Below, piece after piece: positions 1 through 20,236 of a stretch of DNA of 64,000 nt. A program made the translations under genes and the position numbers. A model generated the notes under the pieces. That model had not been told where the DNA came from. It was given only the letters and a program-made list of their open reading frames with translations, and did not search any database. The stretch spans positions 162,273 to 226,272 of IMG/VR virus record IMGVR_UViG_3300045988_069849. One strand, written 5' to 3'. Numbering within the stretch: the stretch's first letter is position 1; every line of letters starts with the position of its first letter. This DNA comes from a virus.

Positions 1-11
1 AATCAAGTACT

Positions 12-1313
12 TCAACACTAATTTCTTTTATATCATAGTTATAGTAATAAGTACCGTTCCCAAGTTTTTGGATTGTCTAAGGATAAACGTCCATTTGTAT
101 TCTATTCGGCTCTAACATAAGGTGTTATTTTAAAATTTATAGGAAATTTGTATCTAAGCAAAGAATAGTGTAATCTCCTATTCTTACTTTTAAAATAGTA
201 GGGTTTATTGTTATACATGAAATGTACTCGAAAATGATTGTCATAATCAACAACCTCTACAATGTGAATATATTTATTATAAAACTTAGATATGTTAACT
301 TCTTTTCCATTCCAGTTAGAGAATTTCAATCCAGTTAATTCCTCTACCTTTCTCAGCAAGTTCTTAGAGTTGCAAAATTTCATCCATCCAAAATAAGACC
401 TCATTCTTCTATTCAATTCATCTTTATCAATCTTATTCTATTTATATAGATTTATAAGCCTAAACATCCTCATTTTTATAGATTTTTTCAGTAGAACATG
501 AGTATGATAGAATTTATAGCCTACGAAATCAATACCTCTGCTTTCTACAGGGAATATTTGATAATTAGGCTTCAACTCTAGGTTAAGAACCTGTTTCAAA
601 TATAGTTTTATAGATACTAATACATTTCTCAAATAATTCTTGTCATTACCAAGAATCACAATATCGTCAGCATATCGAAAGTAGTACTTACATTTTAACT
701 CCTCTTTTACCCAGTGGTCAAAATATGTCAGATATAAATTTGCAAAGAATTGTGATAGATAATTTCCAATAGGAACTCCCTTCGCTGAATAAATTATTTC
801 TTTCAACAGTTTTAATAGTTTTTTATCCTTTATCTTTCTCTATAACATTTCGTATAAAATGTCGTGAGTTATAGAAGGATAGAATTTTTTTATATCCATT
901 TTCAAGCAATACTTTGTTTCTTCTGGATGTTTCTATAACACCTTAAACAAATCATACTCTACTTTATGAATACCTCTATTTCGTATAGAGGAATATGTTT
1001 GGTCTATAAATATACTAGTCCAAATAGGCTCCATAATATTCATTATAGCATGGTGAGTTATTCTATCTGGATAGTATGGAAGTCTAAAGATTAATCTTTC
1101 TTTAGGTTCGTATATTATAAAGGTACTATATTCAGAGGTTTGATAAATCAAATCCCTTAACTTATCGGATAATTCCTTATTTTCTTTTAATCTATTCTTA
1201 TCATGCTGCTTGATTCCACATCTAATAGACTTATTTCTTCTAGCTTTATCGTCAGCTAGTTCGATGTTATCTTCAGCGTATACTTTCTCGTGCAAATATC
1301 CTACACGTTTCAA
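12..1313 (-). CDS. DGR reverse transcriptase; one frame read through in-frame TAG codons at 102-104, 438-440, 840-842, 933-935 (and 18-20)
   Basis: ORF-track fragments 933..1313, 438..806 and 102..416 (-) share one frame (lower coordinate = 0 mod 3) and each ends on TAG. The fragments contain RT motifs: RLIFRLPYYPDRITHHAIM (motifs 1-2), GVPIGNYLSQ (DGR-type SQ motif), YADDIVILG (YxDD). N-terminus LHEKVYAEDNIELADDKARRNKS resembles the DGR RT N-terminus. Apparent start is TTG at 1311-1313; putative TGA stop at 12-14. Confidence 0.8.
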
Positions 1314-1450
1314 TTTTTTATATATTTCATCGGAAGCGTTCGAGAATTAACCTACTAACACCCTTCATTCAACACTACGTTATCTTTTGCCTAGAGGCAA
1401 GGATATTACTTAGCAAACTAAAAAAAAATAATAAAATGTTTCTAAATATA

Positions 1451-1556
1451 TAATAACTCGACATTGGAATTGGCATTGCTGACGTCATTGTTAGAATTGA
1501 AATAGCTGAGACCTGCATTGCTGCCATTATTCGCGTTGCTGCCTACTAGCAGTACT
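1451..1556 (-). repeat. DGR template repeat (TR), A-rich in sense orientation
   Basis: A ~105-nt segment between the RT and the target gene. It is homologous to 1656-1762 and to 29043-29140. All ~27-28 mismatches against each copy fall at adenines of this copy, read on the minus strand. Confidence 0.8.
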
Positions 1557-1630
1557 TTTTTGCCAATCAACGGTTTTTAGAAGTAATATCCTACGATTTA
1601 TCATCTAAATCGATTTTTATATTGTATATC

Positions 1631-3448
1631 TTAAGATACTCTATTCAGAGTCCTGAACCCGACAATGGAAGAGGCACCGCCGACGCCACCGTCAGAATTG
1701 AAACAGCCGAGACCCGCACCGCCGCCAACATTCGCGCCGCCGCCCACCCGCAGCGTGCGAAGCGCTGTGCTGCTTGCGTTGCAGTAATGGTAATCGCAAA
1801 TATAAGTAGTAGCACTTCCTCCAACAGCGGATGGAATTATTTCAGCGGTTTCACCTAAGTCAAATGCCTTAATATAACCATCAGATGCTACTTCGTATCC
1901 TGCAACGGTTTTCTCTCCAACTACGTCGGTAAATTCCGATACGTTAGTAGTTGTATAGACAGTGCTAATCTCATTAGCAGCTGCTCTCACTATAACTACT
2001 CCGTCCAGGTTAGTCCAAATGTCTCCAAACGGATTATCGAACCCTCTCCAGCGAGGTACTTTAAATGTATGAGTTGCTACTGTATTTGTGCCATCTTGAG
2101 CTGTACATTCTGGAATAACTAAATCTTTTACTCCAGTGAAGTTACCAAATTCATTGCAGTAACCACAAGGCGTAAGTGGATATGTTGCATTATATCCTGA
2201 CCAACTTGTAGCTGCGTTAGCCCAATCTGTAACTCCAGGTCCCAAACCCCCTTGATGATATCCATCCGCAGTTAACTCTGCATTATATGCAGCCTAAGAA
2301 TTAAAATTAGCATATTCAATGACATAATTCCAGTAGAATATCCATTTGTAATATTCATAGCATAGCAATTCTGAACCAGCATTTGTTGCATATGTTCTCA
2401 TAGTAGCTCTAGAAATATTAGTTCTAGGCTTTCCTAAATCACTTCTGAATATATCCTTAGTTTCTAATTCTGTAGTTAGATAATCATCGTAGTTAGCTCT
2501 ATTTCCTCCACCTCTAAATGCAGTAGTAGTATTAACTACTGATACAGCTTTTGGAGTTGCGGAGACTGTGGTATCAACTGTACTTCTGTATGCATCTATT
2601 AATAGTTCAGGAATTTCTACCCATGAATCATCAATTTTGACAGTAGAAGTTCTAACCCATCTTTTGTTTCCATCGCTGCCAGATTTTCCATAAAATTTAG
2701 GAGTATTAACTCTTACTGTTCCATCAGTTCCATCTAAGACAGATGGAGTTTCTCCGTCTTCTTTATAAGACCAGTCATCTGGAAACAGATAGTAATTTAC
2801 TACATCATTGTTTGCTACACAACCTCTATACGCTGATTGAATAGGAAGAGATTTATGCAGCAAAGGATTACCTATTCTAGTAAGTTCCGGAGATGCTACT
2901 GTAACATCCCATTCTACTCCATAGGAATATAAATCCATATTACTATTTAGCTCAGTAATCTACTTATCAAGCTTTTGTTGTGCCTTCTACAATTCTTCCC
3001 AAGCCTCATTTAGCGCTGTAAATTGCTCTTCTAGCTTAGAACTTGAATCTGCCCATTCAGCAGTACCATCTGCTGAGAAAACTAGCATCTATCCAGATGC
3101 TCCTCCAGATGGAATATGTTTATTTCCAGAAGTAGTTGGATGTACATAATTATTAGCATTATTAGCTATAGTACTTAACTTTTCCTTCTCAGTTTCAGTA
3201 TAATTGGCTTCAGAAAGTCCCTTTCCTAACTCCTTATCTACTTTGCCTTCAAGCTCACCCTTAGTAGCTAATTCACTAATATCCTAATGCTCAGTTAAAT
3301 ATCCACTATCATTCTGTAACTAAGAAGTTTTAGTTGGAATTGCATTAGCCTTGGCATATGTCGTATCTATAACATTTCCAGCACCATCGTAAGTAGCTTT
3401 TAAATCGTATGTGGTTTCCCCAACCTTTATAGATTTGATTGCTGCCAT
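1631..3448 (-). CDS. tail fibre / receptor-binding protein (~605 aa); DGR target with VR1 at its C-terminus; in-frame TAGs at 2294, 2960, 2987, 3089, 3284, 3320
   Basis: One frame (lower coordinate = 2 mod 3) runs from ATG 3446-3448 to TAA 1631-1633, linking ORF-track fragments 2294..2938 and 1631..2245. It contains the conserved tail-fibre motif HIPSGGASG[Q]MLVFSADGTAEWAD, in which the Gln is encoded by TAG. The C-terminal ~35 aa are encoded by the GC-rich VR. Confidence 0.7.
1656..1762 (-). repeat. DGR variable repeat VR1
   Basis: A GC-rich island in an AT-rich genome. It aligns to the TR with ~28 substitutions, all but at most one at TR adenines. It lies at the 3' end of the tail-fibre ORF. 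Confidence 0.8.
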
Positions 3449-3461
3449 ATCATTGTATTAT

Positions 3462-3662: not shown

Positions 3663-3689
3663 ATTGTTTAAAATATTAATTGTTCATTT

Positions 3690-5506
3690 TCTCCATCTAC
3701 CTCTACACTAGAACCTGGCTATAAAGCGTCTATCTTTTTCTACAATTCGGCTACGGCCTAGCTAATTAGTTCTTCTACCTCAGCTTTGGTGTAGTATCTC
3801 TCTATAAGATATTCGCTCCTAACATATCCAGTATCTTGTAAATCTTTTTCTCCATAGGTGCAATAATAAGTATCTTCTTCAGTCTTACTATTCTCAACTA
3901 GGTCATCATAATCAGCTTGTGGTAAGCATACAAGTTTTGGTACTTCTTCAGTAATAGCAACTTGCTTGCCTCCAGCAAATAGCCTGTTATCTTCTGTGGT
4001 AAGTTTAACAGAACTCTCAATAACTTGCTCAGTTCCTGTTTCCTCAGAAGGTTCTCCAGTTGTTCCCTATTGTACTTCTTTTTCTCCAATTTTCTAAATA
4101 GTAATATCAGAAGTTTCTACTGATGTAGATTTCAAAAGCTCAGTGCTAAATTCTTTAGCAGCAGCAGCCTAATCATCCTGATATTTTTTCTAGGTAACAA
4201 ATATGAAATCATCATCTCCGGTTTCAGGAGAGTCTCCCCTTAAACTTTCTTTTGTTACGTAATCTTCGGCTATCTAATCTGATAAATCAGATAATGACTA
4301 TTGAGTAGCATAAGTAGACTGAGCATTTTCCTTAGTAAGAAATTTGTCATCAACCTGCTAAATAGTATAATAAGCCTTAATATCTTCTGTAGTAACGTAG
4401 TTTCCAAGTTTTTGCAAACCTTGAACTATTTCATCAATCTACTTCTTGGAGTAATAATTTGTAGCAACCCAGGACTGATATTGATTGGTAGTATGATAAT
4501 TCTAATCCAAATATTCCTTAGTAATATAAACCTTTGCATCATTTGTGACGTCATATACATAGTAATATGTATCAGGCTCTACCGTCCCTTCCTCTACTAA
4601 CTTTAGATACTCTTCTTCAGTTAATGTTACTAAGTTCGGAATATCCGATTCAGTAGCAATCTAATCTTCACCTATAAATAATCCTTCAGACCTAACGTCT
4701 ACTACTAGCTAGCTCTCTCCCTCTACTACAGGAGATTTTATCTATCCAACAGTGATGCTTTCTAAGGAACCATCTCCATCTACCTTAAGAGTTTTATCTA
4801 ACTCGTCTTGGATGGCCTACTAATCTTCCTCATATTCTTTCTTTGTAACGAAGACAAAATCATCTCCTTCCATTCCCTCTCCTCTAAGACTTTCTTTAGT
4901 AACGAAAATATTGTCTGTTTCTTCCTTAGTATAATACTTAGTCAGGGATAGAGCTAAAGAATCATTAGAGACATAATTAGTAGTTAATTCTTCCAGTGTA
5001 GCATAATCTGATAGGCTGGCAATAGTGTTATCTAAGTCTGTTCTAATCTATACTACAGTAGTATTAAGGGCCTTCTGTTTTAATTGCTCTTCTATCTTTT
5101 TTCCCCATTCCGCAGATAGGTAAAACTAGTCATCGTCTAAGCTATCCTCATATATATAATAATATGTCTCAGCATGAAGATACGTTTTACTTTCATCTAT
5201 GGGCCTAAAATCGTCTGTAGTATTCTCAGACCATTCTTTATATTCAGCCTCTGTACAGGTGATTATCTAGATAGATTCATAGGATGCTTTCCATCCTTCC
5301 TTGTATTTAATCTTAGACTTATCAATTAGCATATAAATATTTCCGTTATCTATGTTAGCAACGGTCATACCTTGATAAGCATACTTCTCTGGAATAGAAT
5401 AAAGTTCGTCTAAGTTATTAACGACTGTTCTATTATCGAGAGGCTTCGGAGTTTCTACGGTTAAAGCGACACCTAAGGTAGCATCACCTGTATATTTAAA
5501 TGCCAT
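3690..5506 (-). CDS. late structural gene(s) with internal tandem repeats (DDFVFVTKKEYEED / DDFIFVTQKKYQDD); TAG-interrupted; probably 1-2 genes, internal boundaries unresolved
   Basis: Start is MAFKYTGDATLGV (ORF-track 5267..5506). The track fragment 3898..4089 is in a different frame. Coding is continuous only if TAG is sense. A ~45-nt repeat unit occurs at ~4170 and ~4840. Confidence 0.3.
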
Positions 5507-5507
5507 T

Positions 5508-7080
5508 ATTGTGATAGAATAAAGTTAATTTGATGTGGCAATGCTGAGGAGTAAGTATCTTTCTTAGTCCATACCTTGTAAGTAAATCCATTTATCTACT
5601 CGGTAGACGTTTCCCAACCACTTAGGTCTACATTTAAATATCCAAGTCCCCCATCTACGGTAAATGAATTTAACTATGTGTTACTTCCTGGCAATTTTAT
5701 AATAGCCTTACCACTTAGTGAAAATGTGATAGTTCCAGACGATTGTCCAAAAGGAACTAGCGCCTATTTAATCACACTATCAGTATTACCAGAATACCAA
5801 GGATATGTGGCTACTACCTAAGCGGTAGCGGAAATAGAACCAGCTTCTACTCTCTTATCTGTAACTTCTCCTTTATTGTTTATCAAATATTCTCCAGCGG
5901 CATAACTCACTGTACCAGAGTGAGTATAAGTACCAATAGAATTATATGTATCAGACTCTACAGGAGAACTGTTATAAGTAATAGTTTCTTGTCTGTCAGT
6001 TTCTTCTCCAGCATCATTCTTTATAAATGTAAGTGTAGGAGTTAATAAAGCAGTTCCTACTTCTACTATTTGAGAAGTAAAACTATAATAAAGCTATGGG
6101 TATACTAAATCTCTAACTACTGTTGGAAATAGTAAAGTATCAATAATCTCATTAAAGGGCTTGCCCTTAAGTTTCTCTACTGTAGTCCCTTCAATTACTG
6201 TTGAAGTAGTATCATCTGGGAGTTCTGTCTAATAAGTAGCTATAGTTTCTAAGTTAGTTTGTATATTAGTAATACTTTCAGTATTAGCTTCTACTTTAGT
6301 ATTTGTCTCTTGTTGTGCTTCCTAAGTTTTCTATACTTCTTTCTTTGTTTCTTCTAGAGCAGGTTCAAGATTCTTAACATAGATACCTGGAAGGATAATA
6401 GAAGAGGTTTCCTCTCCAATCTCCTATTCTATTAAATGAATAGCATTATCTTCCTAAGTAGATAAAATCACCTCTAAAGAATTATCTTCCTTTAGTTCTA
6501 TAGTTTTGGAATTTTGGAGACTATTCTTAATCCAATTAAGAATGTTTTTATCAACATCTATATTCTCAATAGCATTATTCAACTCAACTATAGCTTCATT
6601 GATTTTTACTATTTCTTCAGATAGATTATTAATCCCTTTTCTATTAGTATCAATTTCTCGTTGTAAATCCTCCTTCAATACAGATATAGAAGTTCTAATA
6701 TTGCTTATATCGACTTTCAGTTCTTCTATTGCTTCTGTATTAGATTCATATTCACTAATAAAGTATAGGGCATAGTCTAGGGCATCCTTCACAGTATTAA
6801 TACCTTCTGCAACGTCACTAGTATAGGTCCATTTTTGTTCTATATACTATACTAGGTCTTTTTGCAGTTCTATGGTTCCACTAATGTTTCCCCACAATAG
6901 ACTCTACTCATCAGCAATACCTAAGTTCTTTCTTACTTTAGCTTTTTCTAGTTCTGTCCTATATTCTCCTAAATAGTTATTTCTTAAGAGGGGTATAGGC
7001 TCACATTTTATAGGCTTACCCTTTTTACCACAAGGCACTATATCTGCGTTACTTACCGAAGTGTAAATAGACTGTATCAT
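5508..7080 (-). CDS. late structural protein (~520 aa, coiled-coil region; fibre/baseplate-like), several in-frame TAG
   Basis: Start MIQSIYTSVSNADIVPCGKKGKP at 7078-7080. It contains ORF-track fragment 6454..6792 and continues through TAG codons to TAA near 5508. The exact frame was not verified along the full length. Confidence 0.4.
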
Positions 7081-7967: not shown

Positions 7968-7980
7968 ATTGTAATAATTA

Positions 7981-8709
7981 AGACTCAATAGGCCACTAGC
8001 CATATTGAGCAGGGGTAGAAAAAGGTTTCCATTTACCTGCTTGTCTTATTCGTCTAGACATGAAGACGGAAGTAAATGATAAACTAATATCTTGAGGATA
8101 ATCTGTCCAGATATAAGAATATCCATCTGGGGTCGGAGGTAGTTTATCTAGTCCAGAAGAAGGCTGACCATTCCAATAGTAGTTATAGTCATATGCCTTT
8201 AGAGAAGTAACTTCTGTAGTTTCTTTCCCTTCAGCATCTATATACAGCGGATTTCCGTCCTCATCTGTTTTCTATTTATATTCTATAACTGGTGTTATTC
8301 CCTCGGTTCTAGTATATATAGTCTATATAATAGTAGAGACATCACTCGCTACTATTTCATAGATAGTAGTTCCCTATGATTCATCAGCTCCCTAAAAAGT
8401 AAATTTAGTTCTTTTCCATATATACGGATTCTCTTCTGTTGGAAGCTCAAAAGTATCAGACCACTACTTACTTGATAATTTTATTTCAGATTCATCGGCA
8501 GTATTAGCAGGGAGATAATGTATTTTAATAATAATACTATTAACTGCTTCACTTGAACCGGATAAATCTGATACCTACTTAAATAATTTTTTTAGGTCGT
8601 CTTCTACATTTGATTTAGAACCGGAAGCATTACTTATAATTACTGTCCCATCAGAGATAGGATAAATCTACTGCTAATCTTTGTTGTATACAATTGTTCC
8701 AGTTGCCAT
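7981..8709 (-). CDS. late structural protein (~240 aa), multiple in-frame TAG
   Basis: Manual translation MATGTIVYNKD[Q]QIYPISDGT... It starts directly after the portal stop. Confidence 0.4.
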
Positions 8710-8710
8710 A

Positions 8711-10882
8711 TTAATGTATTTGTCTTATTTTGTCATTATATGGATTTCCATCATGAAGCTAAGCCAACTCTATTTCAGTTCTTTTTTCTTCAATATCCAT
8801 TTGTCTATCTTTATAAGTAGAATCAGACTGAGCTTTAAGCCAGTTAACTTTATATTCTAACTGCATCTTCTACTATTCTAATCCTAGTCTCTATTCATCT
8901 AAGCTTTCAATCTTTTGCTGAGCTTTCTATAATTCTTGCTATAACTACTGAGCCTATTGAGAAGTTTCTTCTAATTTTTCTTGTAGTTGCTGAAGCTGAT
9001 TATTTTCCTCTTTGCGAACTTGAACAGCTTTCTTAACCTTATATTTAAGGTCTGTCAGACTCTTAGATGTAAGAGCCTCAAAAATAATATCTGGGTCCAT
9101 CTGTTGACTTTTTACGAACTCTGGAATGATTGCTTTTATAGTCTATAGATCTTCCATCACTTCTGAACTAGCAGTAATATGAATATCGTAGTCAGTAACA
9201 GTAAAATACTCAGGAAGTGCGGTGAATATCTGTTGATATTTATCCCCAAGTATAATAGTTCCAGTTAATCCTTTCTTATAAGTAACTTTAGCCTAATTAA
9301 GACTATCTAGTAGTATCTCGCAGGTTATTAAATCCATCTGCTAAAAATAGTGCTTAGTTACTATATACGAGTTAGCTACTCCCTACTTAATATTAGTAAC
9401 TGCATCTCTAGTTTCTATACCGTTAAGTCGTTCCCTAAATACTCCAGTTATTGATGATGTAGTTTGTTCTACTGATTGAATAGCTAATTCAATAGCCTAT
9501 ACAGCCTATGCTTTTAAGGTATCATCAAATCCGTTATATATCTAGTTTGGAGCTTGCTGTCCATCATTCCTACCTTCTTGGCTTGAGTCTATCCACATGA
9601 TACCACCTTTTTTATAGGCTAACCATTTTTGTACTCGTTCTGGCCATTTAACTCCTAAGTTGGTAGGCAACAGAGACATATCCATAATAACTCCGGCAGT
9701 ACCACTATTAGCTATTAGATTATCTCTATAATAGTTTAATAAGTCGTATCTATCCTACAGATGTGCACATTTTAATATAAGAGAATAAGGCTACTAAGAG
9801 CGATTTAAGAAATATACTCCATTTACCGATAAAGAACAGAAGTTGGGATTATCTTTAGATCTCATAACAGTCTTGTCTAATCCTCTAAGAATATATATCT
9901 CTTCTCCTATTCTAATAGTATTGTATCTCTACATCACAAAATCATCATCTGTTTCAATCCATTCAACATCATAGACTGGGATTAACTAGAACCTATGAGC
10001 ACTATATTCATTGTCTGGATAGCCGGGAATGGTTTCATGATTCTAATCTTCATTTACTACTGTACAAGTATCTCCATATACTCTTCTATAAACAGCAGCT
10101 GAATCATCAGCTCGCCATTCATCTTTTAGTCTTCTTAAATCTTCTCTAGATATTTCTTTGCCATATTTAGCTAAAATCTAACTCTTACTCATCCACTTTC
10201 TTACTACAACTCTATATGAGTTCCTTACATATGGAGATTCTGGATTTCTATCAACAAATGTATTAAGTGGGTTTAATACCTCTATTTCAATATTAGTTCC
10301 AGAAGCCGATGATTTCACTCTAAAGAATGTATAACCAGTAATTAATAGGTCTGTTAGTAACTAACGTAACTTAGTAATTAAATCGGTTTCTCTGGATTGC
10401 ATAATATAATGTACTATATTCTAAGCTGCAATTTCATATTGAGAAATAAAGGATTGGTCAATATCCTATATAATTTTATCTAACTAAGTCTTTACAGCTT
10501 TATCAGTAATATCCTTGCCATCAATAAACTTAAGAATTGAATTACTTAAATGGTCTTTCAAAAACTTTACTATTCCCTTGGTTATTTCTAGCTATTTTTC
10601 TCTTGTTATATTACTGATAGTATCTGAATCTTTGCAAGAAATTTTCGGAAGTATAGGAGTTCCTAAATATTCTCCAACTAGAGCATCTACGTGTTTCTTT
10701 AATAAAGGCGTAAACTCTACCGAAGTGGGGCTACCTATTCCGAAGTTTTCTTCCAGATAACGGAACTATTCAGGATCTCTTTTACCATTATAATAATTAT
10801 AAGCTTTCTGTAACTCATACTTATCATATACAAGTTCCGCAATAGCCTCGTTTGTCTTGTCTATCAATTCCTTCTCTTTCAT
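8711..10882 (-). CDS. putative portal protein (~724 aa) with a Q-rich C-terminal coiled coil; about 25 in-frame TAG
   Basis: A single frame runs from ATG 10880-10882 (MKEKELIDRTNEAIAELVYDKYELQKAYNYYNGKRDPE...) to TAA 8711-8713 when TAG=Q. It sits immediately downstream of terL and its size is portal-like. No motif-level proof. Confidence 0.45.
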
Positions 10883-11102
10883 AACATAAATTATGTTGTT
10901 CTGGAGGAAGTTTAGTAGCGTTATAATACTTAACTCTTTGTAACTTCCTACTTCTTAATTCTTCCTTAATAAATGGCAGAAATTCTTCGTCTGGTAAATC
11001 TGCTATTATTACTAATGGCATTTCTGACCTATCAAAGTTAAAAGAGACTTTATACCCAACTGGGTCTAAACTCTCAATATCTAGTCCGCCTATATACTCC
11101 AT
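10824..11102 (-). CDS. possible small ORF in an alternative frame, spanning the terL/portal junction
   Basis: ORF-track 10824..11285 is an uninterrupted 153 codons. It overlaps the terL 3' end and the portal 5' end in a third frame. Only the part downstream of the terL stop could be an independent gene. Confidence 0.2.
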   Translation of the reverse strand: MEYIGGLDIESLDPVGYKVSFNFDRSEMPLVIIADLPDEEFLPFIKEELRSRKLQRVKYYNATKLPPEQHNLCYEREGIDRQDKRGYCGTCI

Positions 11103-13437
11103 TTTGTACAAGTCCCTCATATATTCTAGGATCACTTGTTTCAACTCTGTATGGGTCATCATATTCGTTTCTTTGCATATTAAGTTCAGGAGTTTTCTTA
11201 GTTGGAATAACTCCAAATCTTTTAATTCCTCTCTCGTCGTAATAGTAACCAAAATCTTGGAACTATTCAACTTCTTTCTCCACAAGTACGGGCTGTCTTC
11301 CTGATAGCTCTTGGTCTGCCAACTCAGTCATACCTACAGCGGCTACAATATCATACTTACCCTTATTTTCATCATTATATGCAGTAAACTATTCTAGCAT
11401 TTCTTCGAACCATATAGTATGGCAATAGTCTTCTATAAAGGCGGCTGTTAAATCAGTATGCTATTCAATTATAGTTTTTGTAGCAGGAGTTCCATACTAT
11501 TTAGTAGTTCCATTTCTGACATCAGTTAGAGTAGCTCTTGGGCGCTTCATAAAATAGTTAAGGCATCCTTTTTCTCTAGCCCAAGTAACCATACCCATAC
11601 GAGTAGCTTCTATATTTATTTTACAATTATAATAGCGAGCTAAACACATAGCTATTTTATAGGCTTCTCTGATGTCTCCAGGTCTATCCTTGTACATAGC
11701 AACATACTGAGGGTCATTCATACCAAACGCACGTTTCTTAATCGTTATGCAGAAATCAGACGGATCTCTGGTTTCCTTAGAAGTCTAATTCGCTCCAATA
11801 TCAATACCGTCTATACCTGCTACGTATAAGTCTCGCATCTCTTTATAAACTGGAACTTCAAAATCCTAGCCATTATTTTCTGCTTCCTATCTAAGCTTTT
11901 CCATTTGTTCTTTATATAAGTCAGACCATATTGGATGCTCTAGAATTTTTACTTTACCATTGCTATTAGGAATCCATTTAAAGCCATCAATGTTATCCTA
12001 AGTATGTTTATTATTTTTGTAAAAATAATCAATATAACCACATTCGGGTCTTGGACCAATTTGTTTAAGTCTTATATTAGCTATCTATTCGGCAACTAAA
12101 ATTTTATTAAATTTATTAACACCTTCTAGATTAAATGCTTCTTCTGCATTCCAACAACGTTCAGCACATTTCTTTAGGTAGTCTTCTGGTACAGCTAACA
12201 GATTATCTCGCTCCTCCTATAAGAATTTCTTATATTCTACAGTATTACACACTCCTCTGTGGTCCATAAATTCTGGATTCAAAGATTGTATAAAGTATGG
12301 AATAAAGAATCCACTCTCTATAGTAGTCCCATCCTAAGTCCAATTATGTCTAAATGGAAGAATCTTATATGCTCTTGGATTATAGTAAATCTTTTTTAAG
12401 CCCTCTAGAGGAGCACCCATATCACCGCCAGTACCTCCAAACAACATTGTTCCACGAGGCATACCTTGAACTTCACAAAGTTCTTGACCTTGTACCACAG
12501 CGGTATCAAGTCCAGGCCAGGAACCAGCTTCATCATATATTAATAAATCTACACGGTCTCCACGAATGTTAGATGGTTTAGCTCCGTTAATTGCTACAAC
12601 CTCAGATTTAAATCCTACGTCTTCAAACTAACCATTTATTTTGATTTGTTTACCTGATTTCTTTCTCAAATCCTGGTCAATAAGTCGCAATTTAAAAAAT
12701 CCTCCTCCAGTACAGGTATTTAAGAATGTAAGAGCATTGTCAAACTTACTAAAGGTACCCTTAAGGAAGGTATCATTAAAGCAAGTAATCATAACCCTAC
12801 TTCTTCTAATAACAGAGTACATACGAGCAGAAAGAGAGGCGTTTATTTCAGAGAATCCAATAGAACGAGCTTTCATTAAAGCTGCGTGCTTGTGTAGCAC
12901 TCTAGCCATCTATAGATAATGAAAGAACATATAATGTGATGCAAAGAATATTGGGAAGTCATTATCAGTACCCTCACCAGAGGCTTTCTACTAGTCAATA
13001 GTAGGTAACTAATAGAAATTTAAGAAGAAGTAATTATCTCCAGTAATGGTGTATCCATTAACTGTCATTCCATACTTACATCTTCTATATTGCTCTTTCC
13101 AAAATTCGTTGTACCGCTTACTATCTCTAAGGTAGGGACAGTATTGACCAGTTCGTTTATATACTTCCCTAGTCTCGGTAAACCAATCTGGATTAAAGTC
13201 CAATCCATGAGTTTCGTCAATAGGTCTGTATCCAGTTATTTCATAAGATAAGGTAGGGTCAAATACTTCTATTTTATCTCCTATTTTAACATCCCAATAG
13301 TCAGAATTTCTGACCCTTTCCTCTCTTATTTTCTATACTAATTCTCTAGCTTCTTTAGCATCCTCTTTCTATTCTTTTTCTCTTACCTAATCTACAATAT
13401 TCTATATTTCTTCAGGTAATATCTTTTTTCTTGGCAT
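11074..13437 (-). CDS. terL: terminase large subunit (788 codons incl. stop), ~10 in-frame TAG
   Basis: One frame (lower coordinate = 1 mod 3) runs from ATG 13435-13437 to TGA 11074-11076, joining ORF-track fragments 13009..13203, 12628..12909 and 11497..11721. It contains the Walker B-like LLIYDEAG and an FGGTGGDMG motif. TAG codons sit in sensible positions, e.g. EEI[Q]NIVD[Q]VREKE[Q]KEDAKEARELV[Q]KIREE. Confidence 0.8.
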
Positions 13438-13439
13438 AA

Positions 13440-14006
13440 TTAAAAGTCTCCTGGGTCAAAACCATCCACAGCTCCAGCTCTAACAGTAGATTGTTCAGTA
13501 AGTTCTTTCTTAACCTAGTCTTCTAGTGTTATGAGTTCTTCATGAACTTTGTGAAGGGTAGCCATTTCCTTCATTACTTTTTCAGCCTGGAATACTGGTT
13601 TGCCGTTATTATCACGCTCATTTAAATCTACAATAGTTTCGAAATAATCAATAAACTAGTCTGCAGCTCTTTTAGCTGCTTCTAGTAATTTTATTGACTT
13701 GTTTGAATCTTGTAACGCTCTGTATTTCCTACAAGCTTCTCTAAATATAGGGTCATTAAATTCTGACTCTGTCAATCCAGAATCACTAATAGCTTCGTCA
13801 TGTCGTTCATGTTCCGAATACTAACTGTACGGACTTTTCCAGTCTATAGCTAAATAAATGTAAGATAGTTCTCTAGTAGCTCTATCCTTTTCTGCAGATT
13901 TATCCCTCTAGATTAAAGCCTTAAATTCCTTAACTAGCAATATCTCTGGTTCATTTATTTCTAGCTATTTAGTTAAAGTGTTATAGTTAAATACATTCAT
14001 AATCAT
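13440..14006 (-). CDS. putative terminase small subunit (~188 aa), 5 in-frame TAG
   Basis: Lies immediately upstream of terL. Manual translation MIMNVFNYNTLTK[Q]LEINEPEILLVKEFKALI[Q]RDKSAEKD... The assignment is positional only. Confidence 0.4.
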
Positions 14007-14037: not shown

Positions 14038-14616
14038 TTATTTCTTTTTCATTTTGGAACCGCACTTATTGACTTTCATTTTGGAACCACAAGCGTCTTT
14101 CTTAGCATATTGTTTTCTGTCAGGAACCCATTTTCCTCCCTGGAAATTACCCTTATGTCCCTTATTGGCCATAGTTTCCTAATCATTGTATTTATTGATT
14201 GATATAGAATCTCTTGAGGCTTCGTCTCTAGCAGATTTCATATCTTTCTTATACTAAGCTCTTCCAGCCTTAAATTTATCAACTTCATTAGCTTTCTTAG
14301 TAACTTTAGTTCCTTTTTGTGCTTTCTGGCAAGCTTTACAGATTCTACCGCCTTGCTTAAAATATACAAGCTCTTCTCCTTCTGGACATACTCCTTTTAG
14401 CTTCTTATAATACTCAAGCTTAGCTCCAAGCCTAGCCATTACTCCTCCTTGCATTTTCTGCATAAATTCCTGATACTTAGCTTTAATGCCGTCTTCTCCT
14501 AATTGTTCAGCATAAGCTTGTAAATCCTATTCAGATTGTACTTGTATTCCCTACGCAGCGGCATCTTGTATTAGATATGCCATAAATGCTTTTTGTAATT
14601 CTTCCTAGTTAGCCAT
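14038..14616 (-). CDS. basic Cys-rich protein (~192 aa), 3 in-frame TAG
   Basis: ORF-track 14254..14463 ends on TAG and continues. Start MANWEELQKAF at ~14616. The C-terminus ...CGSKMKKK ends at TAA 14038-14040. Confidence 0.4.
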
Positions 14617-14826: not shown

Positions 14827-15429
14827 TCAATTGTTTCCATACTTCAATTCGTTTCTTCTTTCAGTTAGCTTTTCGTTAACTACAGCCATAATTCTGTTCT
14901 CATTAACTACAACAAATCCAAACTTGTAGAACGGAACCATGCACTCGCTAGCTATTGTATAGAATACTATATCTCCAGGTTTTAGGAACTCACACTTGTG
15001 CCCAACCTCAATAACAGTACCCACTTTAATAAATTGTTGTTCTTCTTCTATTTCTCCTGTTTCATTAGATTTATATGTTGGAGCAAACCCACCTAAGTCT
15101 GTAATTAATCCACTCTTAGTAGTTTTAATTTTTTGAAACGGATTTTGTTCGAAAGGTTTAATTAATGCATACCCATACATAGGCATAATTTCTACACCAT
15201 TCATATCCTCAGATAATGATTTGGCGTAAGATTCTAAAGCTGCATTATGTTTAGAGAATTTATCTTCTAATTCATCTACTGCTGTATTGAATCTTTCCTG
15301 TTTTTCTCTTAATAAAGTTTTATCTGCAGCTTCTCCATTTACTATAAGGTGCTGTCCTGTACCTTCCATACCAGTTATAGCTAGTGCTAGTTTCTCATTA
15401 CTGTTCAATTCTGTTCTTAAAGTTTCCAT
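14827..15429 (-). CDS. hypothetical protein (200 aa), standard code
   Basis: Intact ORF in the track with a TGA stop. Confidence 0.6.
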   Translation of the reverse strand: METLRTELNSNEKLALAITGMEGTGQHLIVNGEAADKTLLREKQERFNTAVDELEDKFSKHNAALESYAKSLSEDMNGVEIMPMYGYALIKPFEQNPFQKIKTTKSGLITDLGGFAPTYKSNETGEIEEEQQFIKVGTVIEVGHKCEFLKPGDIVFYTIASECMVPFYKFGFVVVNENRIMAVVNEKLTERRNELKYGNN

Positions 15430-15530
15430 AATTCATTTTACCATTTACATAAATCACAATGTTCATCTTCTATTCTAGTTTTGTTCTCTAGTATACAACC
15501 ACACTCCTCACATACTTCTCCAAATGAAGT

Positions 15531-15776
15531 CTATAATTTATGAGGACAAGTATTACAAATATTTAATCTTGTGGTTGCTAAATCTTGATTAATTCCAAAT
15601 ATATGGAAATATATACTCTTCAATATTACTAAAGGTTTAGTAAATATTGCTTTAATCCATTTCTTTGGCATCTTTTCAGTAGGTTCTTGAGTCATAAGTA
15701 TATAAGCCTTAGTAGGGTTAGCCATTACTGGAGTCCCATATAGTAATAAATTATTTACCATTTCTTCGCAGGACAA
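15531..15776 (-). CDS. small Cys-containing protein
   Basis: ORF track. Confidence 0.35.
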   Translation of the reverse strand: MSCEEMVNNLLLYGTPVMANPTKAYILMTQEPTEKMPKKWIKAIFTKPLVILKSIYFHIFGINQDLATTRLNICNTCPHKL

Positions 15777-15970: not shown

Positions 15971-15972
15971 AA

Positions 15973-16887
15973 TTAATATTCAATACGTTGACGTTTCTTT
16001 TTATTTTCTGCCAATATAGATTCTTTCTTGTAAAAAGAAAGCATTCTTATTACTTCATCTTTTAAATATGGTAAGTGATATACTGTCATGTTATCACTGT
16101 GGTCGAAGTGTACTAAAACTAAGTCTTCAATTTCAAATTCTGGGTTTTTCTTCTGAATCATCCAGGCGTAAGTACTTAGCTGAAGGGCATAATGCCAATA
16201 ATTAACATCATCTAAATTATTTAGAGGATACTTCATCTTAACTGATGTCTTAGTTTTAGAATTAAAGAAGCTCTTTGTTTCTATTTTTTTATTAGTCTTC
16301 CAGTCACCAATAATTATCTTATTACCTCTTTTAACTAATAAGTCAATTTGTCCAGCTATTCTTAGTTTTCCGTCCTCAGATACTCTAGAGATTAGATACT
16401 CAGGATATACCCCATTCTCCAAATCTAGATTGTTATAGTCTTTTATACACTCAAACTTGCCACCTATTTGATATTTACTTAGGTCTATATCCTTCTTCTT
16501 TTTGTAAAAAGAGTTTTCCAAATCTGCATGGATTCTAGTTCCTCTCTCGCAAGAGTTTCTGTTCTCCATATCCCATGCATCTAAGATAGCTTGTTGTTCT
16601 TTATTAAACTCGTCTTCTGTAATGTTATGAAGTTCAAGTAGAACTTTGTCAAATTTCTTAGTATTCAGCAGAGATTTTTTCTCGATAGCCCAATCTTCTT
16701 TAGGTAGAAGTTTCTCTAGTGCTTTATAAGCTGACCAGAACTCTTTATCAAAGGGTTGGGTGAAAGAATGAATTAAAGTCGTTACAGATATAAATTTCTG
16801 TTCTGGCTTTGTAACATCATAATAAATATGAGCTTCCTCTTCGAAAGCTATGTTCCCATTTTGTTTTGTAATTTTACTTTTGTCCAT
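15973..16887 (-). CDS. PD-(D/E)XK-family nuclease (RecB/Cas4-like exonuclease)
   Basis: GQIDLLVKRGNKIIIGDWKTNKK matches the D...(D/E)xK core. 304 aa. Confidence 0.55.
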   Translation of the reverse strand: MDKSKITKQNGNIAFEEEAHIYYDVTKPEQKFISVTTLIHSFTQPFDKEFWSAYKALEKLLPKEDWAIEKKSLLNTKKFDKVLLELHNITEDEFNKEQQAILDAWDMENRNSCERGTRIHADLENSFYKKKKDIDLSKYQIGGKFECIKDYNNLDLENGVYPEYLISRVSEDGKLRIAGQIDLLVKRGNKIIIGDWKTNKKIETKSFFNSKTKTSVKMKYPLNNLDDVNYWHYALQLSTYAWMIQKKNPEFEIEDLVLVHFDHSDNMTVYHLPYLKDEVIRMLSFYKKESILAENKKKRQRIEY

Positions 16888-17001: not shown

Positions 17002-17345
17002 ATGTCTAATATGACAAAAATGGTAACATTTGGATGTCCAATTTTTAAAAACGGGTCAGGCATTCATATTAAAGAGAAAAACAAAGGTAAATTTACTGCC
17101 TCTGCTAAGGCTGCAGGATAGTCTGTACAGGAACATGCTAAATCTGTACTAAACAATCCTAATGCTACTCCTCTTCAGAAGAAGCGTGCTAACTTTGCTA
17201 GAAACGCGGCTAAATGGAAACACGAAGATGGAGCTAAGATACATAAACCAAGTGGACATAGATCTATTCTAGATAATGGATGGATTCCTACTACTAGATT
17301 AAAGAAAGGAAATTATGGATTAATTAAAACAAGAAAGCAATGAAC
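17002..17345 (+). CDS. small basic protein with one in-frame TAG (plus strand)
   Basis: Manual translation MSNMTKMVTFGCPIFKNGSGIHIKEKNKGKFTASAKAAG[Q]SVQEHAKS...KTRKQ. Confidence 0.4.
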
Positions 17346-17418: not shown

Positions 17419-17610
17419 ATGGACTATAATAGAGCAACTCTTTATGCGGCTACTGGTCGTACTTTATTACTCCCTGGCTGGAAAGGGTATTTTTATTGGG
17501 ACTATACTAAGAATGAATTAAATTTTAGAAATGGAGACTATCATTTAGATAACAAATAGCTCAAGGAGAAAGGAGTTATGGAACGTAATGATTGGTATTA
17601 TATAATATGA
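17419..17610 (+). CDS. small protein with one in-frame TAG
   Basis: Manual translation MDYNRATLYAATGRTLLLPGWKGYFYWDYTKNELNFRNGDYHLDNK[Q]LKEKGVMERNDWYYII. Confidence 0.3.
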
Positions 17611-18043
17611 TAATTAAAAATAATATTATACCGTTTGGAGGTTATAAAGTAATTAATCTGTTTGGATTAATATTTACTAAGTCGGATTTGACTGATGAGG
17701 ATAAGAATCACGAGAATATCCATTCAGTATAGATTTTAGAATGTGCAATAGCGTTTGCAATACTTATATCTATATTATTTGGATTAGAATGGGTATGGTT
17801 AGCTATTCCATCTTTCTATATCTGGTATGGATTAGAGTATTTAATTATACGACTATTAAGACTTAAAGATTCTCAAAATGATTGCTACAGAGATGTAAGC
17901 TTTGAAGAAGAAGCTTATATGAATGAAGACAATTTACAGTATCTAGAAGGATAGAGAAAGATGTTTTCATGGATAAAATATCTAAAAGTTAATGCATAAC
18001 AAAATAGGCGAACTTAGACAATTAAGTCTAGGCTCGCCTATTT

Positions 18044-18601
18044 TTATTTACTATTATACGTACAAGTGATTCTGTTTGGCTCTTCCCACCAAGGTTTATC
18101 TGAAAGTGGAGTTCTGATGCTATTGGGCCAATTTATAATTGGAGTAGTTTCCTCTACTATAGCCTCCATTATTTTAAATAATGTATCCAAGTCTAGCTCT
18201 GGAAGCAGCTCATGAATATTAGTTATTGTTTTCTTATAATTTATCATACCTTCAAAAGTGTCGTTAATAATTGCTTTCTCTATTGTAGTATCTTTATATA
18301 AACCATGTTGTAGTATATTTCTTACTTGATGGTCTATTTGATTCCATATATCTAATAATATAGAAGAATCATCTGAAAGACTATATTGTGGATAGCTAGC
18401 CCTTAAACTGCTAAGTACTTTGCCATTAATGTAAATGTCAAATACGAAATTTTTTATATCATCTGTAGTTTCTCCAGAAATTCCTGCAGCTCTTTGTAAA
18501 AGTTTAAGAGCCTTTTCATATACTTCTCTTTCTTCACGTTCTCTTCTTGAAGAATTAAACATCATCATATTTGCGGCTACTGACATATTAGTACGATACA
18601 C
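18044..18601 (-). CDS. hypothetical protein (185 aa)
   Basis: ORF track. Confidence 0.5.
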   Translation of the reverse strand: MYRTNMSVAANMMMFNSSRREREEREVYEKALKLLQRAAGISGETTDDIKNFVFDIYINGKVLSSLRASYPQYSLSDDSSILLDIWNQIDHQVRNILQHGLYKDTTIEKAIINDTFEGMINYKKTITNIHELLPELDLDTLFKIMEAIVEETTPIINWPNSIRTPLSDKPWWEEPNRITCTYNSK

Positions 18602-19065: not shown

Positions 19066-19292
19066 TTCAATACCTTATAAGTACATATCTTGCCTATCTG
19101 TTTTCCTTGAATTGTTATTTGCGGAAGAAAATAGCAGGCTTGATTCTCAAATTCTTGAGGTACAAAGATATAATCAAACTTACTTCCAACTACCTTCTCA
19201 CAAACTTTATTCCAATCGTCTCCCTCTTCTATAATAAGAGTTTTAGCTCCTGTTGGAGTTACTACATAATTCTCATTTAATTTTATCATAAC
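19062..19292 (-). CDS. hypothetical protein (trimmed; the track ORF N-terminus is the tRNA)
   Basis: ORF track 19062..19364. The first ~24 residues overlap the suppressor tRNA. The likely real start is MIKLNENYVV. Confidence 0.35.
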   Translation of the reverse strand, partial: VMIKLNENYVVTPTGAKTLIIEEGDDWNKVCEKVVGSKFDYIFVPQEFENQACYFLPQITIQGKQIGKICTYKVLK

Positions 19293-19306
19293 TATTAATT
19301 TTGGCG

Positions 19307-19378
19307 TTGCCCTACTAGGATTCGAACCCAGACTAAATGATTTAGAGTCATCTGTGCTGACCATTACACCATAGGGCA
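19307..19378 (-). tRNA. amber suppressor tRNA, anticodon CUA (reads UAG), tRNA-Gln-derived
   Basis: Cloverleaf: acceptor tgcccta/tagggca, D-arm gtgt-aatggtca-gcac, anticodon stem gatga/tcatt with loop CUCUAAA (positions 34-36 = CUA), variable tagt, T-arm ctggg-ttcgaat-cctag, discriminator A. D-arm and T-arm are nearly identical to tRNA-Gln(UUG) at 34205-34276. Confidence 0.8.
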
Positions 19379-19383
19379 GTAAC

Positions 19384-19918
19384 TTATTTCTCTTTTAGAG
19401 ATTTATTTTCTGCTGCCAATTTCTCTAGTTCTTTTCTTAATTGTTCATTTTCGTGAAATAAAGCCTGCATAGTAGCGTTGATACTAGCTAATAGTATTCT
19501 CATTTGAGCAACCTATTCATACATAAGCTTTCAGTTGTTCAATTCTCTTTTTAGCTATATCTGACAATGCCATTTTGAATTTAGCAATACCAGCTCTTAC
19601 TGTTTCTAACTTGCCGCTTTCTAAGCATTCTTGTATTTTATGAACTTCAAGCTCTCCTAGATATTCGCATACATCTATAAATAAATCATCATCTAGAGAT
19701 TCTAAATATTTCTGGAATTGGTCTACCTCTTCATTAGCTAGACAGCTTTCTTCCTTCTATCTTTCATAAGATATTAATAAGAACAAAGAATCGTCGGTAG
19801 ATTCGGACTTAATAGTTAGCCCATTACCAGACATATAATATTCTTGATTCGTATTAATTGCCTCAACTAGCTATTTAAACTAGTCCTAATTTAACAATGT
19901 TTCTAAGTCTGTAATCAT
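19384..19918 (-). CDS. TAG-containing gene upstream of the suppressor tRNA (possible regulator; ~177 aa)
   Basis: Manual translation MITDLETLLN[Q]D[Q]FK[Q]LVEAINTNQEYYMSGNGLTIKSES...; at least 8 in-frame TAG. The frame was not verified end to end. Confidence 0.35.
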
Positions 19919-20236
19919 AATTGTTTTCTTTTTAGTTATATACAACAATAACCTCCGAAAAGTTAAACGCAAAGTTAAAAAATTCTAATTCAAATATTAT
20001 ACATATTTTATATATTAAGGGGAAAGCCGGTACAGGTACTTTATATAAATAGCCCCCTGGGGTTATTATAAATTCCGACTTTTATATTTGGAGGGCAATT
20101 ACCTAGATTCCAAAAATTCATAGAGTGAGTGTAGTGGCGGTCCACAACCCCTTTAGTCCCCCCCTGTATATTGATATAAAACTAAAACAAAAACAAAAAT
20201 CAATTTCCAGTATTAACATTTTAAAATTTTAAGATT

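Follow-up and report, generated by a model that had tools for sequence, protein, structure and literature searches.

Recoding of the amber codon in late genes (TAG to Gln, "code 15") has been described for crAss-like phages (Yutin et al. 2021, PMC7886860) and amber recoding of phage late genes also by Borges et al. (2021, bioRxiv 10.1101/2021.08.26.457843), while Peters et al. (2022, PMC9523058) proved by proteomics that two crAss-like phages read TAG as Q. Amber-suppressed Zeta crAss-like phages with a DGR include ctoVY1, cthgQ11, 3717_85572 and ctHMy13, which have genomes of 176-189 kb, 23-27 tRNAs, a CTA suppressor and a GC content of 34.5-35.1% (PMC12386605, Table 1). The window analysed here (64,000 nucleotides, positions 162,273 to 226,272 of IMG/VR virus record IMGVR_UViG_3300045988_069849) belongs, judging from its crAss-like terminase large subunit (TerL) and portal, to a large crAss-like phage of the gut, so the earlier note was right to compare it with the code-15-like pattern of that group. 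The GC content of the window was 35.9% and close relatives measured 175-193 kb, in agreement with the Zeta group of Crassvirales. The best TerL match in the "phages" collection had 43-44% identity.

Compared with the published crAss-like recoding, nothing essential differs. TAG occurs in TerL, portal and tail genes and lies opposite Gln, early and replication genes keep the standard code, a tRNA-CUA is encoded by the phage, and close relatives differ in code; the CTA suppressor and the amber-suppressed late genes are likewise shared with the Zeta phages of PMC12386605. The window differs in that two distinct CUA tRNAs (Sup1 and Sup2) flank the divergent early/late switch region, and in that neither a release factor nor a synthetase turned up among the proteins scanned from its 64 kb. 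The novelty hinted at earlier was overstated: the literature already covers the phenomenon, the phage group and an amber-suppressed reverse transcriptase of a DGR, and in public protein sets this portal already has Gln at 28/28 sites. What the window adds is the confinement of early TAG to last codons, a complete DGR, a tmRNA, a RAGATH-14 RNA beside Sup2 and UUA variants of Sup2.

When non-overlapping ORFs (minimum 80 aa) were chosen greedily, they covered 36% of positions 1-19,920 under code 11 and 90% when TAG was read as sense (code 15). Control recodings covered 39% with TGA and 57% with TAA as sense, without a gain comparable to that of TAG. The longest ORF was 304 aa under code 11 and 787 aa with TAG as sense. 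In-frame TAG accounted for 117 of 4,686 codons in the late set (11 genes) and for 0 of 9,250 codons in the early plus-strand set (49 genes; Fisher p=1.6e-56), and off-frame TAG was equally frequent in both (28-32 per 1000), a late pattern far beyond chance. TAG made up 50% of the late-gene Gln codons. The CAA:CAG ratio was 87:31 in late genes versus 152:126 in early genes, and this particular depletion of late CAG is expected from CAG<->TAG transitions. The only in-frame stops in late genes were TAG, never TAA or TGA, and the reading frame was unbroken at every one of them. All coordinates given by the earlier note were reproduced. Its view that TAG is sense across the late block, and not the border of separate short genes, agreed with the Pfam and PHROG domains (RT, portal, TerL, tail protein and HNH) that cross TAGs; on these matches the code-11 fragments are not better supported as separate genes.

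The late genes lie mostly on the minus strand. TerL (11074..13437) ran from ATG 13437 to TGA 11074 as proposed, with 787 aa plus the stop and 20 TAG (phrog_6681, 7.7e-63). The portal (8711..10882; 723 aa, 28 TAG, stop TAA) matched P22_portal in Pfam and phrog_6547 (1.5e-47); several TAGs do lie in its Q-rich C-terminal coiled coil, but the peptide quoted for it in the earlier note was slightly mis-transcribed. Between the portal and the tail fibre were found 3668..5506 (612 aa, 20 TAG, function unassigned), a tail-protein-like gene at 5506..7080 (524 aa, 12 TAG; weak match to the tail protein phrog_788, 1e-4) with a homologue in the standard-code relative L001, 7236..8003 (255 aa, 4 TAG; 29% identical to its syntenic counterpart in L001) and 7978..8709 (243 aa, 9 TAG). 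Upstream of TerL were 13440..14006 (188 aa, 5 TAG; phrog_16390, 49% identity to L001), 14038..14616 (192 aa, 5 TAG, the first at codon 4) and a small Cys-rich ORF with a single TAG (15438..15776). The minus-strand genes that the earlier note had listed as free of TAG were indeed so, namely a GroES-like gene (14827..15429), a PD-(D/E)XK exonuclease (15973..16887) and 18044..18601. The short plus-strand genes at 17-18 kb carried sense TAGs as it had stated, with one in 17002..17343 and two in 17607..17999 (phrog_15610). The gene that opens the minus-strand block (19517..19918; 133 aa from ATG 19918) contained 4 TAG.

A codon alignment of the portal with 79 IMG/VR relatives, including a standard-code subset of 30 distinct relatives, showed Q in 47% of the standard-code cells of the 28 TAG columns versus a background of 6.8% (6.9-fold). 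Six of the 28 columns were invariant Q in the 30 standard-code relatives and another four had Q in 28-29 of them. In recoded relatives, 55% of the non-TAG codons in these columns were CAA or CAG versus 14% GAA, and TAG alternated with CAA/CAG in the TerL columns as well. In the tail-fibre motif HIPSGGxxG-[TAG]-(I/M)L..DGTA.W, the TAG (aa 119) corresponded to Q in every matching standard-code relative, so that in portal and tail fibre alike TAGs fell on conserved Gln positions and not in gaps. The syntenic standard-code relative MT835470 had Q opposite 14 of 57 TAGs (background 4.6%), and relatives of the plus-strand genes at 17-18 kb had Q at aa 40 (29 matches) and at aa 42 (24 matches).

These alignments also bear on whether the TAGs are artefact or decay, that is, sequencing or assembly errors, pseudogenes, or introns or inteins that split the genes. 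Zeta crAss-like phages are rich in introns and inteins (PMC7886860), and the TerL match in the relative MT835539 is in three pieces over 4.4 kb. However, stops of one kind only in a frame kept throughout, the same TAG positions in dozens of independent assemblies, their alignment to Gln, and homology without insertions (a portal of 723 aa versus about 723-736 aa in standard-code proteins) make such an origin hardly conceivable, and the portal alignment of 79 relatives had already refuted it.

The pooled likelihood for the residue at TAG placed Gln first; Glu trailed by 11.7 log units, Arg and Lys by about 25. A minority of TAG columns had E, A, T, K or I in standard-code relatives, which is expected for variable positions, so the call of Gln rests on the aggregate. 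By codon alignment, TAG in the late genes is read as Gln; this assignment, made in the earlier note, was borne out by the alignments, the likelihood and the kinship of Sup1 with tRNA-Gln.

About 30 tRNA genes were found in the window, grouped in a block where the early strand begins. Two predicted tRNA genes had the anticodon CUA, and thus the lack of any UAG-reading tRNA, which the earlier note had named as counter-evidence, was not observed. Sup1 (19306-19378, minus or late strand; Rfam tRNA, 66 bits), which has U1-A72 and A73, is located downstream of a late gene that itself holds 4 TAGs. It was 78% identical to the phage tRNA-Gln(UUG) at 34205..34277 (plus strand), its apparent parent, with D and T arms that each differ by one base. 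By sequence Sup1 is a paralogue of this tRNA with the anticodon changed to CUA, and as a tRNA-Gln duplicate it would be expected to be charged with Gln. In the fetched flanks, 20 of 25 close recoded relatives had a conserved Sup1 at the corresponding position, and the 36 standard-code relatives all lacked it. Sup2 (21667-21738, plus strand; Rfam tRNA, 56.5 bits) leads the tRNA array of the early strand and had at most 64% identity to any other tRNA of the window; its U1-A72 pair was found in four other window tRNAs too, and its anticodon is UUA in some near-identical relatives. A RAGATH-14 RNA (RF03145; 21467..21638, plus strand; 184.6 bits versus a gathering score of 149.1) was found 28 nt upstream of Sup2.

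Classical nonsense suppressors derived from tRNA-Gln include E. coli supE and the T4 tRNA-Gln amber and ochre suppressors, and a tRNA-Gln with anticodon CUA (or UUA) puts Gln at UAG. Sup1 similarly retains the tRNA-Gln body, and Sup2 varies between CUA and UUA among relatives. Unlike the classical suppressors, the window has a dedicated fixed gene beside an intact tRNA-Gln(UUG), serving more than 100 sense TAGs instead of the rescue of a mutation.

Reassignment of TAG to another residue (Glu, Lys, Tyr, Ser, Leu, Trp or pyrrolysine) has in our view a slim chance of being correct. ARAGORN labelled both CUA tRNAs "tRNA-Pyl", an assignment made on the anticodon alone, but both fold as ordinary cloverleaves and no PylS or PylBCD domain was found among the scanned window proteins. 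Glu is the second commonest residue opposite TAGs and with TerL alone trailed Gln by only 0.7 log units, and the amino-acid identity of Sup2 is not fixed by its sequence. Against this stand the pooled preference for Gln over Glu and, by about 25 log units or more, over all others, the six invariant Gln columns of the portal, the exchange of TAG with CAA/CAG and not GAA in recoded portal relatives, and the close paralogy of Sup1 and tRNA-Gln.

Overall, it is very likely that the phage uses two genetic codes, the standard one early and one with UAG as Gln late, decoded by phage suppressor tRNAs. It was observed directly that TAGs stand in frame, that they are equivalent to Gln codons of relatives, that two CUA tRNAs are encoded and that the modules are strictly divided. 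The late code set would comprise the genes for packaging, portal, tail and tail fibre and for the DGR reverse transcriptase, plus the pair of short plus-strand genes at 17-18 kb and, from within the early array, the gene of an HNH homing endonuclease, and Sup1 and Sup2 would be the amber suppressors that decode UAG. Following the model of Borges et al., a standard-code host would translate the early genes first, and the cell would effectively move to code 15 as suppressor tRNA builds up. Full-length virion, packaging and homing-endonuclease proteins would then be made only after the switch, which would make the TAGs a translational timer. The place of Sup1, on the late strand behind a gene with 4 TAGs of its own, counts against this timing.

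Suppression would have to be nearly complete in genes that hold 20-28 TAGs (0.9^28 is about 5%), and host RF1 would then have to be out-competed or neutralised. Among about 26 window proteins scanned with Pfam (about 30 with PHROG), none was a release factor, an aminoacyl-tRNA synthetase or an inhibitor of RF1. If TAG were still a stop and leaky read-through attenuated the late proteins to low levels, the absence of an RF1-inactivating factor or RF2 gene among the scanned window proteins would agree with it, and the terminal TAG of six early ORFs could terminate. However, read-through of 90% per site would yield about 5% full-length portal (28 TAG) and 12% full-length TerL (20 TAG), too little to be plausible for structural proteins of which many copies are required. 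TAG also makes up half of the late Gln codons, and its number among relatives (5 to 36) drifts freely like that of a synonymous codon. This possibility seems less probable still than another residue at TAG. Recoding was a clade trait in the portal tree.

The early plus-strand module contained the tRNA array, NAD salvage genes, ATPases and others. The claim that 20-64 kb lacks TAG except in the HNH gene held for the codons of the 49 early genes counted, but 6 of 68 early ORFs end at TAG, so that early-gene TAG, the HNH gene apart, is confined to last codons. These six ORFs (range 22154..48147, plus strand; ends 22645, 27276, 43050, 45537, 46419 and 48129) have a back-up TAA or TGA 2-22 codons after the terminal TAG, and relatives had TAG, CAG, TAT, GAG or GAA at these end TAGs. 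The HNH homing-endonuclease gene (44022..44570, plus strand), inside the early tRNA array, had 5 in-frame TAG, and its match to the HNH endonuclease phrog_2255 (5.3e-25, aa 98-179) extended across 3 of them; an intron endonuclease with recoded stops was described by Borges et al. In addition, a phage tmRNA was identified at 43323..43887 (plus strand; RF00023, 62.1 bits versus a gathering score of 47, E=1e-23), with G3:U70, an insertion of roughly 273 nt and a tag reading frame of (A)ATYSEVRMAA with stop UAA. It was conserved in 8 relatives. PMC12386605 gives one CTA suppressor per genome and mentions neither tmRNA nor RAGATH-14, whereas the window has two CUA tRNAs and both RNAs.

Finally, the DGR was complete in the window, with reverse transcriptase, template repeat (TR), variable repeat (VR) and tail-fibre target. 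The code-11 fragments 933..1313, 438..806 and 102..416 reported earlier (minus strand) fused into a reverse transcriptase gene at 39..1313 (424 codons when counted from TTG, the earliest possible start; 4 in-frame TAG, stop TAA). Its Pfam RVT_1 match (1e-19, aa 76-267) ran across two TAGs, and its GxxxSQ motif was GNYLSQ in the recoded translation. The target gene (1631..3448, minus strand; 6 TAG) matched the tail protein phrog_5302 (1.9e-83) and ran from ATG 3448 to TAA 1631 as proposed, with 605 aa plus the stop. The VR lies inside it at 1656-1753 (aa 566-598) and was 74% identical to the 98-nt TR (1455..1552, minus strand), with adenines of the TR, read on the coding (minus) strand, accounting for 24 of 25 mismatches. 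The full-length reverse transcriptase with GxxxSQ, the amber codons in its gene and the tail-fibre target resemble the DGRs of the Zeta phages.

Read with the bacterial code, the window (G+C content 35.9%) contained only short ORFs in its first 19.9 kb, the longest of which was 305 codons from stop to stop. When TAG was read as a sense codon, ORFs of 793, 747, 618, 608 and 526 codons were produced in this region, and reading TGA or TAA as sense did not restore the long ORFs there. Re-calling with code 15 instead of code 11, as proposed in the earlier note, raised the ORF coverage of 1-19,920 from 36% to 90% when non-overlapping ORFs of 80 aa or more were chosen greedily, while the controls with TGA and TAA as sense gave 39% and 57%, respectively. 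A total of 117 in-frame TAG codons and no in-frame TAA or TGA were found in the 4,686 codons of 11 genes of the late module (1 to ~19.9 kb, mostly minus strand), whereas 49 plus-strand genes of the early module (~20-64 kb) had 0 in-frame TAG in 9,250 codons (Fisher p = 1.6e-56). Outside the reading frame, TAG trinucleotides occurred at the same frequency in both gene sets. The reading frame was kept across the TAG codons, and Pfam and PHROG domains spanned TAG positions in the late genes. The first TAG was located at codons 4-80 of every late gene except the reverse transcriptase (RT) gene, where it was codon 127 as numbered from an upstream TTG. The earlier note had described a late module in which TAG encodes Gln, and both this observation and its interpretation were correct.

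Proteins encoded in the minus-strand block included the RT (39..1313; Pfam RVT_1, 1e-19), a tail protein or fibre (1631..3448; phrog_5302, 2e-83), the portal (P22_portal; phrog_6547, 1.5e-47), the large terminase TerL (11074..13437; phrog_6681, 8e-63) and several proteins without assigned function. The gene structures that had been drawn from the sequence alone were reproduced, namely the coordinates of three RT fragments, a TerL of 787 aa ending in TGA, a tail fibre of 605 aa ending in TAA, three TAG-free genes (14827..15429, 15973..16887 and 18044..18601) and TAG codons inside the plus-strand genes at 17.0-18.0 kb. Among the TAG-free genes of the late block were those for a GroES-like protein and a PD-(D/E)XK exonuclease. 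No lysis genes were identified within the 64-kb window. A complete DGR was found on the minus strand within 39-3448, comprising the RT with a GxxxSQ motif (GNYLSQ) and 4 amber codons, a TR at 1455-1552 and a VR at 1656-1753 which lies at the 3' end of the tail-fibre gene, within its last 40 codons (aa 566-598 of 605). Mismatches between TR and VR fell at TR adenines in 24 of 25 cases and were mostly A to G. No avd-like ORF was evident between the DGR target and the RT. A DGR with such an arrangement is already known in Zeta crAss-like phages (PMC12386605).

Alignment with homologues showed that TAG aligns with Gln in the portal, TerL, the tail fibre and the genes at 17-18 kb. In MT835470, a syntenic relative with the standard code throughout, Q stood opposite 14 of 57 TAG codons of the window (background 4.6%), with E and K next in frequency. 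The portal comparison used 79 portal genes with their DNA, 36 without TAG and 43 with 5-36 TAG codons. At the 28 TAG columns of the window's portal, Q occupied 47% of the cells of 30 distinct standard-code sequences, a 6.9-fold enrichment over the portal background of 6.8%; six of the 28 columns were invariant Q and four more had Q in 28-29 of the 30 sequences. In the recoded relatives, CAA and CAG accounted for 55% of the non-TAG codons at these columns, and the TAG columns of TerL behaved in the same way. A BLOSUM-based likelihood computed over column majorities ranked Gln first, with Glu 11.7 log units and Arg and Lys about 25 log units lower. The TAG that had been placed at a conserved Gln of the tail fibre (tested as HIPSGGxxG-[TAG]-(I/M)L..DGTA.W) was opposite Q in all matching standard-code relatives and in one near-identical genome, and exchange between TAG and Q was also seen in both plus-strand genes at 17-18 kb. 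TAG made up 50% of the Gln codons of the late genes. The CAA:CAG ratio was 87:31 in late compared to 152:126 in early genes, showing a selective depletion of CAG in late genes, which is the footprint expected from exchange of C and T, in either direction, between CAG and TAG. For two crAss-like phages, Peters et al. confirmed Gln at TAG codons with metaproteomics (PMC9523058).

A tRNA able to read UAG, which the earlier note had put forward as a check, was encoded twice. ARAGORN identified 29 tRNA genes in the window, two of them with anticodon CUA, designated Sup1 (19306-19378, minus strand) and Sup2 (21667-21738, plus strand, opening the early tRNA array); Rfam confirmed both and added one tRNA-Ala. 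Sup1 showed 78% identity to the phage tRNA-Gln(UUG) at 34205-34277. Their D and T arms differed by one base each, both carried U1-A72 and A73, and the differences were confined to the anticodon arm and compensated acceptor pairs. On these grounds Sup1 is a duplicate of tRNA-Gln that was turned into an amber suppressor. Of 25 close recoded relatives, 20 had it at the same position, whereas the flanks fetched for the 36 standard-code relatives all lacked it. Sup2 had at most 64% identity to any other tRNA of the window; it also had U1-A72 and A73, as did several others, and U1-A72 was rejected as proof of a Gln tRNA because four other window tRNAs have this pair. ARAGORN labelled these genes 'tRNA-Pyl' from the anticodon alone. 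Pyrrolysine decoding was rejected: both are ordinary cloverleaves, Sup1 is paralogous to tRNA-Gln, TAG aligns with Gln, and no Pyl genes (pylS/pylBCD) were found among the scanned window proteins.

Variants of these tRNAs were observed in relatives. In seven close relatives (L083, L084, L088, L089, L090, L093 and L095), several with a portal matching that of the window, the tRNA at the Sup2 position had an ochre-type anticodon, UUA, able to read UAA and UAG. Recoding of TAA in these relatives was rejected for the portal, as their portal genes had no in-frame TAA. TAA terminated most genes of these phages. A single '*' in the portal of another relative (L022) was its genuine TGA stop. Two further relatives (L086 and L094) had a Sup2-position tRNA with a 6-nt anticodon loop. 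One locus (L025) carried at 103-192 a 90-nt CUA tRNA whose body resembles tRNA-Gln and whose variable region contains 17 inserted nt; a different decoding of TAG was rejected for this relative, since the tRNA body is Gln-like and Q is still found opposite its TAG sites.

The two modules were divided near 20 kb, where the sign of the GC skew flips at the point of divergent transcription. Promoter, terminator and repeat scans of the switch region at 19.3-22.2 kb gave nothing above chance. The earlier statement that the 20-64 kb module lacks TAG except in an HNH gene held for internal codons, as the HNH endonuclease (44022..44570; phrog_2255, 5e-25) was the sole early-module gene with internal TAG (5 codons), but it did not hold for ORF ends, six of which were TAG. 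A recoded homing endonuclease within an early region is the same situation as in Borges et al. (bioRxiv 10.1101/2021.08.26.457843). The stops of 68 early plus-strand ORFs were 40 TAA, 22 TGA and 6 TAG, the last at ORFs ending at 22645, 27276, 43050, 45537, 46419 and 48129 (plus strand). Each terminal TAG was followed by a TAA or TGA 2, 3, 5, 5, 8 or 22 codons on, and relatives had CAG/TAT or GAG/GAA at two of the six positions with the ORF continuing to the same downstream stop. From these nearby second stops and the sense codons in relatives, TAG seems to be tolerated in early genes only where termination and read-through are equivalent and its meaning is irrelevant. A TAG stop followed by a close second stop has been reported in Zeta genomes without amber suppression (PMC12386605).

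The resemblance to crAss-like gut phages claimed in the earlier note was borne out, as TerL and the portal were homologous to those of crAss-like phages. TerL shared 25-29% identity with many named crAss-like phages across ~80% of its length and 43-44% identity with two unannotated human-gut phage records, and the PHROG matches phrog_6681 (TerL) and phrog_6547 (portal) supported this homology. Megablast of 8-20 kb against the GenBank phage collection gave no near-identical match. Thousands of relatives of the portal were present in public metagenome protein sets, and IMG/VR contigs with an essentially identical portal were 175-193 kb, which serves as a proxy for the genome size since the window itself is 64 kb. 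Genomes of the Zeta group are 145-192 kb (PMC7886860; PMC12386605), and the window has the Zeta-type features of ~30 tRNA genes, a DGR and an HNH gene. Size, tRNA block, DGR and crAss-like packaging genes are consistent with a putative placement in the Zeta group. In a neighbour-joining tree of the portal, the 43 recoded sequences formed one clade with a single TAG-free member, and the other clades were TAG-free. This member (L060), the only TAG-free portal within the recoded clade, suggests a reversion to the standard code. In another relative, MT835539 (55 kb), the TerL match at 12001-16434 was split into three pieces over 4.4 kb, which suggests intron or intein insertions as reported for Zeta crAss-like phages.

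Late-gene recoding of TAG to Gln with phage suppressor tRNAs is already established in crAss-like phages (PMC7886860; bioRxiv 10.1101/2021.08.26.457843). It has been reported explicitly for the Zeta group, the branches of which differ in using TAG recoding, TGA recoding or the standard code (PMC7886860). Amber-suppressing, DGR-bearing Zeta genomes of 176-189 kb have 23-27 tRNAs and a CTA suppressor, and amber codons inside DGR RT genes have been noted for Zeta (PMC12386605). The suggestion that the recoding might be new for this genome was not upheld: the phenomenon is known, and the same portal is present in public protein collections with Q at all 28 TAG sites. The public loci encoding this portal gave no translation under code 11, so automated pipelines had already called those contigs in code 15. 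Recoding in the window by itself opens no new question. Under code 11, the structural module of a very common gut phage (a single portal cluster comprises 1,084 sequences) is broken into meaningless fragments, and annotation misses TerL, the portal, the tail fibre and the DGR reverse transcriptase. With sense TAG codons equivalent to Gln, suppressor tRNAs of phage origin and a split between early and late genes, the window is a clean example of two genetic codes within one phage genome.

The near exclusion of TAG from early genes, yet its use for half of the late Gln codons, fits the published idea of a timing of late translation. The TAG-free early genes point to a host that would use the standard code. 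Following Yutin et al. (PMC7886860) and Borges et al. (bioRxiv 10.1101/2021.08.26.457843), early genes would be translated first while the suppressor tRNA accumulates, and full-length proteins from TAG-containing late genes would be possible only after this build-up. With 28 TAG codons in the portal gene, read-through of 90% per site would leave ~5% full-length product, so reassignment would have to be nearly complete, which in turn would require that RF1 is out-competed or disabled. A comparison of ~26 window proteins with Pfam recognised no release factor, aminoacyl-tRNA synthetase, candidate inhibitor or other protein for a code change.

Two structured RNAs were found in the early module. 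The orphan structured RNA RAGATH-14 (RF03145, 184.6 bits) was located at 21467-21638 (plus strand), ending 28 nt before the start of Sup2; a conserved hairpin lies between the two. RAGATH-14 followed by a CUA tRNA was found in 12 further relatives of ~115-190 kb. It also occurred in 13 other contigs, which measured 28-101 kb (67-101 kb in eleven cases) and were judged crAss-like from their size alone. None of these had a tRNA after RAGATH-14, so a general role as partner of suppressor tRNAs was rejected, and its pairing with Sup2 is lineage-specific. Among crAss-like phages, RAGATH-14 seems to be an ncRNA of general occurrence, with the smaller contigs so classed by their size. A literature search found no description of RAGATH-14. 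A tmRNA was identified at 43323-43887 (plus strand; Rfam RF00023, 62.1 bits against a gathering score of 47, E = 1e-23), with the G3:U70 alanine identity pair, an insertion of ~273 nt and a tag frame that reads (A)ATYSEVRMAA and stops at UAA; the ARAGORN run on the window did not report it. The tmRNA was kept in eight relatives, in one of which (L130) it was a compact form of 341 nt with 134 bits. This survey scanned loci from large relatives only, and a 21-nt T-arm pattern proved too unspecific for it. The tags were ATYSEVRMAA, AEIAPVRMAA and AEDNLAYAA, and the stop was always TAA or TGA. No mention of a tmRNA was found in two genome papers on crAss-like phages.

Whether these RNAs act together with the suppressors was also considered. 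RAGATH-14, the two suppressors and the tmRNA might be cooperating parts of a code-switch machinery larger than that described so far for these phages, though we regard this as unlikely. The two non-identical amber suppressors flank the divergent early/late switch region, and the anticodon of Sup2 toggles between CUA and UUA among near-identical genomes. Under such an arrangement, Sup2 would be coupled to RAGATH-14 as a control or processing element of its expression. Ribosomes that fail to stop at host TAG codons, or that stall at UAG because RF1 is blocked while suppressor tRNA is scarce, would be rescued by the tmRNA; a role of the tmRNA with either kind of ribosome is speculation.

Other observations were made in the early module, which also encodes an SPFH protein, an OmpA-like protein and AAA ATPases. 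The 83-nt 'tRNA-Tyr(AUA)' called by ARAGORN at 39354-39436 (plus strand) is doubtful, with a poorly paired anticodon stem, and the tRNA-Ala(UGC) at 41365-41437 (plus strand), found by Rfam and missed by ARAGORN at default settings, has a weak acceptor and T stem. Finally, a NAMPT gene (Pfam, 3e-32) adjoins a gene for a PRTase-family protein at 57606-60358 (plus strand), the latter matching at 1.3e-05 and 25.7 bits, just below the Pfam cut-off of 27 bits. The two look like a putative pair for NAD+ salvage or reconstitution; pairs of this type have been linked to the countering of defence by NAD depletion.
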